A DNA stretch of 28,213 nucleotides, from the NCBI GenBank assembly GCA_041746575.1, contig JBGTGT010000134.1:1-28213 (forward strand). The letters run 5' to 3'. Of the stretch, positions 15,936 through 26,730 are shown piece by piece (position 1 is the first letter of the stretch; each line of letters opens with the position of its first letter). The stretch comes from Microcystaceae cyanobacterium (GTDB lineage: Bacteria; Cyanobacteriota; Cyanobacteriia; Cyanobacteriales; Microcystaceae). The notes beneath the pieces are model-generated. The model searched no databases. It saw only the letters and a program-made list of their open reading frames with translations, and was not told the DNA's origin. The translations under genes were made by a program, and so were the position numbers.

Positions 15936-17090
15936 ATGAGGGTGAGTAAAAAGCTAAGAGTCTGGGTGAGTCTTTTTCTAATAATAATAATCACAGCTTG
16001 GAATAGTCCTTTAATCGCTATTGCCGATGATCGCTTATTTTTGAACTTGTCTCTCGAATTTTTAGGAGAGTACCAACTGCCGAAACAGGATTTTGAGCAG
16101 ACAGGAGTGGGGGGATTATCTGCGATCGCCTATGATCAAAAAAGAGACTGTTTTTATGCTCTATCCGATGACCGTTCCCTCAAGAATCCTGCGCGCTTTT
16201 ATACCCTTAAAATGTCTCTTAAACCCTCTATTGCGGGAGATATTACCCTAGATCGCGTCACGGTGGAAAAGGTGACGTTTTTTAGAGATAAGGACGGTAA
16301 TCTTTATTCTCCTTATGCCATTGATCCGGAAGGTTTAGCCTTTTCTCCTAGAGACACACTTTTTATTTCGACGGAAGGAAACGTAAAAAAACAAATTGAT
16401 CCTTTTATTGCTGAATTTAACTTAGAAACGGGGCGATTCATCCAAACTGTTCCGCTACCGAAACGGTTTCTTTTTCACCCCTCAGATCAGTCTCTTAACG
16501 GCGTTCGAGAAAATAGAGGTTTTGAAGCGTTAACCATCGGTAAAACGAGTATTTTAAGGGATGATCCCTTCCGTCTTTTTGCTTCTCCAGAATATTCTCT
16601 TTCCCAAGATATTCCCACGACTTCTGACAAAAAATCTCCTTTGCGATGGCTTCATTATGTAATTAATCCCATCGGGGAACCTGTGTTAATCTCAGAACAG
16701 GTTTATCTATTAGAACCTGCCCCCTTGGGAACGTTACTGTACGGTCTAAGCGAATTGGTCACCCTGCCAAAGGAAGGCTATTGGTTGAGTTTAGAACGAA
16801 TTTTTGGCGTTTTTGGCTTTCAGGCGAAAATTTTTCAAGTCGTGACAGCAGATGCTACTGATACCTCTCGCATTTTAAAATTTCAGGGTGATTTATCAAG
16901 GATTAAACCGTTATACAAAAAATTGTTGCTGAATTTACCTCAAAAAGGCATCGAAATTGATAATTTAGAAGGAATGACCATTGGACCTATTCTACCGGAT
17001 GGTAGTCCTAGCTTAGTGTTGGTCAGTGATAATAATTTTAAAGCGGAAGAAATTACCCAATTTTTGTTATTTCGTTTAAAAAAAGGATAA
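15936..17090 (+). CDS. Esterase-like activity of phytase (Phytase-like) family secreted protein
   Basis: Signal peptide, GGLSAIAYD, ALSDD, DPEG, NRGFEAL, DNLEG, VSDNNF. Confidence 0.9.
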   Translation: MRVSKKLRVWVSLFLIIIITAWNSPLIAIADDRLFLNLSLEFLGEYQLPKQDFEQTGVGGLSAIAYDQKRDCFYALSDDRSLKNPARFYTLKMSLKPSIAGDITLDRVTVEKVTFFRDKDGNLYSPYAIDPEGLAFSPRDTLFISTEGNVKKQIDPFIAEFNLETGRFIQTVPLPKRFLFHPSDQSLNGVRENRGFEALTIGKTSILRDDPFRLFASPEYSLSQDIPTTSDKKSPLRWLHYVINPIGEPVLISEQVYLLEPAPLGTLLYGLSELVTLPKEGYWLSLERIFGVFGFQAKIFQVVTADATDTSRILKFQGDLSRIKPLYKKLLLNLPQKGIEIDNLEGMTIGPILPDGSPSLVLVSDNNFKAEEITQFLLFRLKKG

Positions 17091-25027: not shown

Positions 25028-25366
25028 TTAGCTTTCTAAGCTACCGACACTAACCGGAACTAAATCACCGTGAATCGTTAAAGCTAACAGCATTTTGTCA
25101 TCTTGTTGAATTAATTTGCCCGTTAAGACACAACTCTCATCCTTGCGAGCCGTCGCCTCAATTGTAGCGCGAATGTCAGCAGGGGAAAATTGAGGACGAT
25201 AATCCCCCGATTTTTGCTGAACGTAATTCCAAAGAATATCTCGAATCAAGGCTTGATATCCTTGGGTTCCTGCCAGCTTTTTCAACTTATCTTTCAAAGA
25301 TTTTTCTAAACGAATGCTAGTAACCTCCATTTCGGTGGTTGGCTTACGAGTGAGTGTCCGCATCAT
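25028..25366 (-). CDS. trcR: Ribbon-helix-helix repressor, TrcR (All0854)-like
   Basis: RHH-like MEVTSIRLEKSLKDKLKKLA...YQALIRDILWNYV; divergent from HNH and alr0857-like genes, as recalled for Anabaena PCC 7120 all0854/alr0856/alr0857; GGAG RBS. Confidence 0.78.
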   Translation of the reverse strand: MMRTLTRKPTTEMEVTSIRLEKSLKDKLKKLAGTQGYQALIRDILWNYVQQKSGDYRPQFSPADIRATIEATARKDESCVLTGKLIQQDDKMLLALTIHGDLVPVSVGSLES

Positions 25367-25387
25367 GATTTTTTCTCCAAAAAGAAG

Positions 25388-25416
25388 TAGACAAAATAAT
25401 ACTACCGGTGTAATAT
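25388..25416 (+). promoter_or_regulatory. Sigma70 promoter overlapped by a palindromic TrcR-type operator
   Basis: TAGACA (25388-93)-17 nt-TAATAT (25411-16); inverted repeat ATACTAC-CGGT-GTAATAT (25399-25416, one mismatch). Confidence 0.7.
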
Positions 25417-25446
25417 TAGAAAAGCGTTTAATGATAGATTACTTCT

Positions 25447-25474
25447 ATTTTACTTCAACGATGATACGTTTCAA
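25447..25474 (-). promoter_or_regulatory. Candidate trcR promoter
   Basis: Minus strand TTGAAA-16 nt-TAAAAT. Confidence 0.45.
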
Positions 25475-25748
25475 CCCCCTTATGAAATTTATTTCTCACT
25501 TTTGTCCATTGAGTGGACCAGAGGGAGGAGTTTGTCGATTTTATTTAGGGTTAGCGAACAGAAATTGTGTTGAAGGATTATCAGAAGTGTCCTTTATTAT
25601 TGATTTCTATCGAGATAGTCAGTGGATGACAGGGAAGTCCATGGAGATAGCCCTCCCTACATCTCTCATCCTCGTCGGCGGGAGGTACAGGTTCAAACCC
25701 ACTGTACCAATAACATAAGCTTAAATTTGATTTAAATTGGCTCATGAC

Positions 25749-25777
25749 CCGCTTCTTATCTTGAAAGCGGTTTTTTT
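25749..25777 (+). terminator. Intrinsic terminator or attenuator upstream of the HNH gene
   Basis: CCGCTT-cttatcttga-AAGCGG followed by T7. Confidence 0.75.
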
Positions 25778-25803
25778 ATGGCAATTTTGCTGAGGTGGTT
25801 TTT

Positions 25804-26322
25804 GTGAAACAGCCAATTGACCTTTTTCAACCCCTAATTACGGTTTTTTTCCACAATTATTTGCCCTTAAGTCGGGTGATTTTACGGCGCGGCATTTTGC
25901 TGTTAGTAACCGGAAAAGCTGAACCTCTAGATTTTAATTGCTCTGTAGAGTGGGAAATTCATTCTGCTTATTATATTTTGATTGTTTTTAGCCAAATTCG
26001 TTTATCTTATTCCTCTTCTGAGCAAATATGGCAATTTCCGTCCGTGAAGCGTCGAGAAGTGCTAAGTCGGGACAAATATCGCTGTCAATACTGTGGTAGT
26101 CCCCATCGGTTAACCCTAGATCAAGTGATTTCTCGCTCTGAAGGCGGAAAACAGACTTGGGACAATGTGGTAGTAGCTTGTGCAGACTGTAACGGAAGTC
26201 AAGGGGATCCTACCCCGCAGCAAGAGGGAATGAAGCTAAAAACAGCACTTAAAGCTCCAATTAATCCTTGTCTTGCCTTTGCCGAACAGTTTTGGCAATT
26301 TTCATCTATTGACGGTGTTTAG
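25804..26322 (+). CDS. HNH endonuclease family protein (Alr0856-like, McrA-type) with substituted catalytic His
   Basis: RREVLSRDKYRCQYCG...LTLDQVISRSEGG...WDNVVVACADCN; GAGG upstream of GTG 25804 (alternative start 25795). Confidence 0.85.
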   Translation: MKQPIDLFQPLITVFFHNYLPLSRVILRRGILLLVTGKAEPLDFNCSVEWEIHSAYYILIVFSQIRLSYSSSEQIWQFPSVKRREVLSRDKYRCQYCGSPHRLTLDQVISRSEGGKQTWDNVVVACADCNGSQGDPTPQQEGMKLKTALKAPINPCLAFAEQFWQFSSIDGV

Positions 26323-26340: not shown

Positions 26341-26730
26341 ATGTTAAAATTAACTTATACGGAAACAGGATTGTCTTTGGAAATCTTGGAACAACCATTA
26401 GAAATTTGGGTTAATACTTGGGTTTTATTAACTCTACGGTCCGGGACTGCGCTTTGGGTTGAACCCACCACTGCAACCTTTATTTTACCTATCGATTTGC
26501 CCCATATAGGCGAGTTACTAAATATTGTCCATGAAGAAATTGAAACAAGTCTTGAACTCTATCTCGGTGATGAAGAAGGAATTGAGGTCAATTTAGACGG
26601 AACGTGGTTATCCTCGAATGCAAATGCAGAAGAAGGGGTTTTTGTCTGTGGATTTAGCGATCGCACAGAAGCCTGTCTATACCGATTATGGCAAGCCTCA
26701 GAGCACTCTGCTTCGGTTTTAAATGAATAA
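26341..26730 (+). CDS. Alr0857-family hypothetical protein
   Basis: MLKLTYTE..LE.L...LE.WV...LxLRxG....EPTTATF.LP.DLP...GTW...EEGVFV...DRTE..LYRLWQ pattern, as recalled; GAGGAG RBS. Confidence 0.75.
   Translation: MLKLTYTETGLSLEILEQPLEIWVNTWVLLTLRSGTALWVEPTTATFILPIDLPHIGELLNIVHEEIETSLELYLGDEEGIEVNLDGTWLSSNANAEEGVFVCGFSDRTEACLYRLWQASEHSASVLNE

Follow-up and report, generated by a model that had tools for sequence, protein, structure and literature searches.

A conserved cyanobacterial leader reading frame with a candidate ribosome-read terminator switch ahead of HNH and alr0857-family genes

Transcription attenuators that are set by a translating ribosome are a known kind of regulator. The bmrB leader of Bacillus is an antibiotic-sensing leader-peptide attenuator, and in the Bacillus leaders of yxjB/tlrB and vmlR the position of the ribosome selects either the terminator or the antiterminator. 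These leaders are characterized by short peptides, drug-specific stall sites, and NusG pauses. The whiB7/wblC leaders of mycobacteria and streptomycetes belong to a translation-stress response and have a long uORF upstream of an intrinsic terminator, the uORF varying in both length and sequence. According to the passages of PMC10274678 on their mechanism, efficient translation leads to termination, and slowed translation leads to the antiterminator.

The leader described here, from a Microcystaceae cyanobacterium, resembles whiB7/wblC in the long, variable uORF before an intrinsic terminator and in its link to translation stress, and it resembles the Bacillus attenuators in that ribosome position is predicted to choose between the two folds. 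In contrast to whiB7/wblC, its promoter is also under a repressor (TrcR), its output consists of HNH, alr0857, and tRNA arrays, the predicted antiterminator is a three-way junction, and the stop codon follows the antiterminator strand by about 30 nt. No amino acid stands out as enriched in the cyanobacterial leader peptide (Ala 6.6%), and a sequence relation to whiB7/wblC is not to be expected. Compared to the Bacillus attenuators, the frame is long (50-110 codons), the peptide is free to vary, and the TTNTTT motif of NusG pausing is not conserved (10/103 copies).

The Anabaena PCC 7120 counterparts are asr0855-alr0856-alr0857 and the leader of all8564, whose orthology is based on gene order and promoter. 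The annotation gives asr0855 as a protein of 83 aa, and both PMC10272220 and PMC8421152 treat it as hypothetical. The parts of PMC10272220 on the regulon give asr0855, alr0856, alr0857, and all8564 as TrcR-repressed, the first three rising 7-9-fold without TrcR. Anabaena RNA-seq values change from wild type to trcR deletion from 23 to 215 (asr0855), 97 to 701 (alr0856), and 47 to 397 (alr0857), and chloramphenicol induction is recorded for asr0855, alr0857, and all8564. Published accounts carry asr0855, alr0856, or alr0857 as list entries, and PMC2821919 also names one or more of them. The main text of PMC10272220 contains 0 occurrences of “attenuat,” “terminator,” and “leader,” and the trn operon paper PMC8421152 contains 0 of “attenuat.”

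The contig stretch studied, called the window here, is 28,213 nt long and comes from contig JBGTGT010000134.1. It harbors, on the reverse strand, a 112-aa gene (25028..25366), the putative homolog of the translational-stress repressor gene trcR, which was recognized as an open frame with conserved synteny and is divergent from the leader. Its relatives are 70-86% identical, and profile scans gave no Pfam or NCBIfam match, and the name trcR is therefore taken from synteny and the common operator instead of a profile. The other side of the leader is occupied by an HNH gene and, behind it, a gene of the alr0857 family, which reproduces the order all0854 (trcR)-asr0855-alr0856-alr0857 of Anabaena PCC 7120. 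A putative sigma-70-type promoter on the forward strand (25388..25416) combines a -35 element TAGACA (25388-93) with a -10 element TAATAT (25411-16), from which transcription would start near 25423. The same layout is found in P(all8564), located at L195 2133-2204 (NC_003273.1), and this promoter was mapped by 5′-RACE according to the corresponding part of PMC8421152. The -10 box is overlapped by a near-palindrome (25399..25416) that matches the TrcR motif footprinted in PMC10272220 and is thus a putative operator that would place the leader in the TrcR regulon of this organism. A TrcR-box-like match also lies upstream of 38 of 42 leader copies found independently by an RNA model.

Homologs were collected from the best 80 of 434 trcR loci and from 61 alr0857-centered loci. 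Under a strict pattern, 97 of the 142 loci contain the element, 93 of them distinct; 12 of the 45 misses carry it on looser inspection, and the remaining ones include trcR loci without HNH or alr0857 as well as second copies of alr0857. The patterns contain both strands of the antiterminator helix, so that pairing counts among these loci are partly given by construction; strand-pairing counts over 103 copies leave out L010 and L053. A covariance model built from 61 homologs finds matches in 70 of 151 genomes from the class and at a single place in the window genome (second match E 0.35). No match to the leader was obtained in phages, and no variant occurs in the element among the DNA contigs of sequencing runs X1 and X4, which are possibly the source of the window DNA. 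Rfam holds no family that reaches the gathering score, the best E of 0.47 being at chance level. The element is real and widespread, and it is undescribed in Rfam and in the open-licence literature searched.

The stretch singled out in an earlier note as an unannotated, tRNA-like RNA is best read as the final part of a conserved leader frame, not as a tRNA look-alike. The whole stretch lies in an open frame (25314-25718) that the note had missed. Within it, the predicted leader ORF, the asr0855 homolog, spans 85 codons on the forward strand (25461..25718) and ends in ...GGRYRFKPTVPIT-stop, with the TAA (25716-18) at the base of a second hairpin. The ATG at 25461 is the putative start, judged by position in homologs, with 25431 and 25482 as alternatives. 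Among the homologs, the frame that runs through GCGGG is open for at least 60 codons upstream in 87/93, compared to 3 and 5 for the other two frames. The stop falls exactly at codon +12 past GCGGG in 62/93 (TAA 35, TAG 17, TGA 10), and the longest frame ends between GCGGG and the terminator in 90/93. The distance from a conserved GTG start to GCGGG is a multiple of three in 31/31 cases that cover seven different lengths. The RNA model is blind to the upstream frame, which makes the 42 copies that it found independent of any selection for that frame; it is open for at least 50 codons in 42/42 of them (37 read by script, and five rows that were anchored 4 nt late read from the third column). Six homologs cross GCGGG in another frame and yet stop 16-35 nt after it.

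The peptide itself is far less constrained than the neighboring proteins. Leader dN/dS is 0.64-0.84 in four clades, compared to 0.03-0.20 for trcR, HNH, and alr0857, with a lower value of 0.41 over codons 1-33 in Nostocales, and the peptide cannot be aligned across clades. Leader dS is about half that of the same three genes, a sign of constraint at the RNA level. The frame is kept while the peptide drifts and off-frame copies still stop, and therefore it appears to be translation across this spot that is preserved rather than a product. A conserved stall peptide or run of control codons was not found among the homologs, in which the peptide is near neutral and the frame shifts. At the frame end, the first codon is AGC in 93, CGC in 6, and GGC in 1 of 103 copies, the third codon is AGG in 65/103, and GGAGG is present in 60/103.

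Two candidate features of this end were rejected. R-x-R is a macrolide-type stall motif, which the “RYR” of the peptide recalls; its codons vary, and six homologs read the site in another frame. Reinitiation at GGAGG was discarded because no conserved start lies downstream of it. Further upstream, the leader ORF contains a long 5′ hairpin (25481..25540, forward strand; z -3.1 in the window, below -2 in 32/59 homologs, and -3.2 for the whole leader of the window), possibly a pause site or a ribosome brake.

The frame ends inside a set of strands that are predicted to fold in two mutually exclusive ways. An antiterminator strand, GGCGGG (25677..25682, forward), which the earlier note had also overlooked, is predicted by the lowest-energy fold to pair with CCCGCT (25748-53) in the 5′ arm of the terminator. 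This GCGGG:CCCGC helix would close a three-way junction whose inner arms are hairpin 1 (25684..25708, forward), with a free loop sequence, and hairpin 2 (25714..25746, forward), which is variable among homologs with poorly aligning columns. The predicted intrinsic terminator (25749..25777, forward) is formed by CCGCTT (25749-54) and AAGCGG (25765-70) with a 10-nt loop, which is why it escaped a pattern scan, and is followed by seven T residues (25771-77). The strong terminator claimed before HNH is present at the level of sequence, with a 6-bp stem that is shorter than in most homologs. A U-tract of at least five T in the 8 nt after the stem occurs in 96/103 copies. At the level of sequence, an intrinsic terminator of GC stem and U-tract therefore separates the uORF from the regulated gene, and the conserved uORF overlaps the antiterminator strand.

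Folding predicts both states. The antiterminator has a probability above 0.5 in 91/93 nascent RNAs that lack the 3′ arm of the terminator and above 0.9 in 85/99 homologs, and the terminator exceeds 0.5 in 91/93 full RNAs. As a control, 42 terminator-like hairpins of this genome were folded in the same manner; 14 exceed 0.5 and five exceed 0.9, one of the five being this element. Another member of this control set, a terminator-like hairpin near 16255 of the window (forward), has a predicted competing strand upstream of it at 0.98. The central G of the terminator's 5′ arm finds a Watson–Crick partner in the antiterminator strand in 100/103 copies, compared to 80/103 for the 3′ arm of the terminator itself.

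The covariation among homologous spacers that the earlier note had called for is present in hairpin 1 and the terminator, where both sides change in 9/17 pairs (6/7 in hairpin 1), a level reached in 0/500 shuffles and inflated by relatedness; slid controls are near 50% paired. The antiterminator helix is 93% paired and shows no covariation because it is nearly invariant (299 and 62 of 500 shuffles as high). When a ribosome is mimicked by masking, the antiterminator stays intact in 82/99 folds with the ribosome at the stop codon, the bulk of the ribosome lying outside the model, and is left in 0/99 with the ribosome over GCGGG.

Most of the sequence features from which the tRNA-like reading was built do exist. 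The block 25615-25710 is locally rich in GC (0.53, compared to 0.35 upstream and 0.40 in the window), and GGATGA (25624-29)/TCATCC (25666-71), AGGGA (25631-35)/TCCCT (25654-58), and GAGAT (25644-48)/ATCTC (25661-65) were located as described, as was the stem GGTACAG (25684-90)/CTGTACC (25702-08) that forms hairpin 1. The supposed T-loop cap has its sequence, but the loop is 11 nt long (GTTCAAACCCA), and a “T-loop” requires one G-C pair plus a CA bulge. ACCA is found at 25706-09, but its ACC is paired within the stem and there is no free 3′ end. The note had rightly seen no D-arm or anticodon arm, and an acceptor arm is absent as well. The GGATGA/TCATCC fold is not a family feature: the 100 nt before the antiterminator strand give a median z of -0.14, with 6/59 below -2.

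An RNA of the tRNA-mimic or Y-RNA-like kind ending at ACCA is accordingly a very improbable reading and is largely refuted. GTTCAAAC and ACCA do occur in the window copy, and rtcB and tRNA arrays belong to the TrcR regulon. However, a TTCRANY motif lies near the hairpin in 1/93 homologs, that one being the window, ACCA occurs in 19/93, and the region is an open frame under selection. The search with ARAGORN that had been proposed gave no tRNA or tmRNA, and the proposed search of Rfam was equally without a match. The likeness to bacterial Y RNAs (YrlA) and tRNA mimics is limited to an octamer that resembles a T-loop by chance and ACCA in the window copy; the element here is coding, and a conserved T-loop, an acceptor stem, a free CCA, and an Rfam match are all absent. 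The tRNA-like features of the hairpin are due to chance. The attenuator that the note had listed as a further option is the one that gains support.

The remaining suggestion, that a tRNA array has decayed and left this remnant, does not hold for the hairpin itself and is right in one respect: in many cyanobacteria the same leader heads tRNA L-arrays, and the array is missing in this genome. Among 20 extra model matches that were fetched, 13 have 7-21 tRNA genes on the same strand just downstream, and the arrays behind such extra copies usually follow an HNH gene; at least two tRNA genes lie within 3 kb in 10/37 trcR loci. The copy on pCC7120delta (NC_003273.1, L195 2217-2494) scores 61 bits with the covariance model. 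It heads the Anabaena trn operon, lying between the mapped promoter P(all8564) and all8564. Its 72-codon frame is absent from the gene table of the record, and 24 tRNA genes follow downstream. The Anabaena trn array also has a promoter of its own, as stated in the section of PMC8421152 concerned, and therefore direct control by the switch would extend to HNH, and its control of the array would be partial at most. In the window and the draft genome (134 contigs), no tRNA array was found downstream of HNH/alr0857; the genome has 36 scattered tRNAs.

Several further copies stand out among the loci examined. Five genomes (G080, G385, G393, G305, and G319; loci L176-L180, L184, L186-L191, and L193) carry 3-5 leader modules each, most with tRNA arrays and some with their own divergent trcR paralog. 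At L191 3224-4405, an extra copy without HNH or alr0857 match is followed about 1.2 kb downstream by a 393-aa ORF whose start resembles RtcB. An ARAGORN tRNA with the anticodon CTA inside an L-array (L185 3362-3433) may be degenerate or suppressor-like.

The HNH-family gene behind the leader (25795..26322, forward; alr0856/all8564 homolog, Pfam HNH/HNH_5) has its likelier start at GTG 25804, 8 nt after GAGG. Its HNH motif (window 26080-26200) reads LTLDQVIS, in which the catalytic His is replaced by Gln (DH to DQ), a change found in 1/77 homologs, and the Pro after it is replaced by Ser. The nuclease is therefore likely inactive in the window genome. The missing array and the HNH without its catalytic His, the two differences from Anabaena PCC 7120, suggest that the module may be decaying in this genome while the leader is still intact.

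The alr0857-family gene (26341..26730, forward) scores above the cut-off of NCBIfam NF045647. The structure of Alr0857 is modeled with a pLDDT of 90 from an alignment and 34 from a single sequence, and the model has no Foldseek match at E 0.001 and no clear solved match (best Z 5.0). The language-model neighbors of Alr0857 in the Atlas include WapI immunity-type clusters. A nuclease-inhibitor pair of HNH and Alr0857 is a weak lead from these neighbors, although loci that have lost HNH often retain alr0857. The leader element persists without HNH too.

Taken together, the leader is probably a ribosome-read switch. With somewhat less assurance, it is considered a uORF-controlled transcription attenuator that opens when translation slows, a direction adopted from the whiB7 analogy and the known chloramphenicol induction of the regulon. 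Ribosomes that cross GCGGG would keep this strand single-stranded and melt hairpins 1 and 2, and with GCGGG occupied the terminator would form and end transcription ahead of HNH and alr0857. When ribosomes are slowed in the first 60-70 codons, the antiterminator junction, which could form before the 3′ arm of the terminator is made, would fold, and the polymerase would read through. Such a switch that reads translation would be a second layer beneath repression by TrcR.

Some of the published expression data, the masked folds, and the lack of a conserved pause motif count against this model. The leader asr0855 of Anabaena does not exceed its downstream genes in abundance, and the published tables show no drop after the terminator. 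Unless the short RNA is unstable or lost, a substantial share of transcription reads through even in the absence of drug. In the sections of PMC9938897 on a direct-RNA microarray, erythromycin raises asr0855 2.5-fold and all8564 as well, and alr0856/alr0857 are outside the 21 listed features. Loss of the short RNA, leakiness, and the bulk of the ribosome could explain these contrary results. The published tables, which show no regulation-specific drop, would also fit a small-protein gene, with asr0855 as a protein gene or dual-function RNA before an ordinary leaky terminator or 3′ stabilizer that sets a fixed ratio, and with GCGGG lacking any switching role. The annotation as an 83-aa protein, the dN/dS of the first 33 codons in Nostocales, and the antiterminator helix without covariation speak for this explanation. 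It is nonetheless unlikely, as the peptide is near neutral overall, unalignable across clades, and able to shift frame, GCGGG is conserved more strongly than the 3′ arm of the terminator itself, and an ordinary terminator would not retain a single sequence from one order to another.

The good expression of the downstream genes without drug would also fit a switch with a local trigger or of opposite sign, in which a ribosome held at the frame end by hairpin 1, GGAGG, or the AGG codon covers GCGGG, so that stalling shuts the operon and read-through is the default. The masked folds, in which the antiterminator is lost solely under a ribosome that covers GCGGG, and the frequency of GGAGG and AGG fit this as well. 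However, roughly 85% of the frame precedes GCGGG, and general inhibitors would be expected to stall ribosomes there first, elongation inhibitors induce the regulon rather than repress it, and other sequences stand in place of AGG and GGAGG in about 40% of the homologs, which makes this version quite unlikely. A protein or nuclease that switches the junction, for example HNH or Alr0857 in autoregulation, with the frame only protecting the RNA or timing its folding, would account for the synonymous constraint and the long 5′ hairpin across the leader. The strong sequence conservation could then be a binding site, and the element persists where HNH is lost. Such a role for the junction is improbable: the stop position is tied to it in 90/93 homologs, and no RNA-binding fold was found for Alr0857, whose model has no clear structural match.

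The uORF-controlled attenuator would bear on a question that PMC10272220, in the passage concerned, states as open, namely how translational stress is sensed upstream of TrcR. In Synechococcus only 22% of transcription units end at intrinsic terminators, as given in the relevant part of PMC12642595. A broader interpretation is tentative and falls somewhat short of an even chance: a phylum-wide, mobile “ribosome-speed gauge,” composed of a sequence-free leader of 50-110 codons and a three-way-junction antiterminator, may travel with tRNA L-arrays and open a module of HNH, alr0857, and spare tRNAs when translation is slow, for example during tRNA shortage. If true, this gauge would be the first family of leader-peptide transcription attenuators described in the Rho-less cyanobacteria and would provide the direct sensor that is missing from the TrcR model. 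The combination of a conserved switch, a known promoter, and a genetically tractable strain makes it testable whether ribosomes can control termination in cyanobacteria and whether a translation sensor belongs to the tRNA L-arrays themselves. If the attenuator is confirmed, asr0855 and many annotated homologs would be relabeled as regulatory leaders, not proteins.
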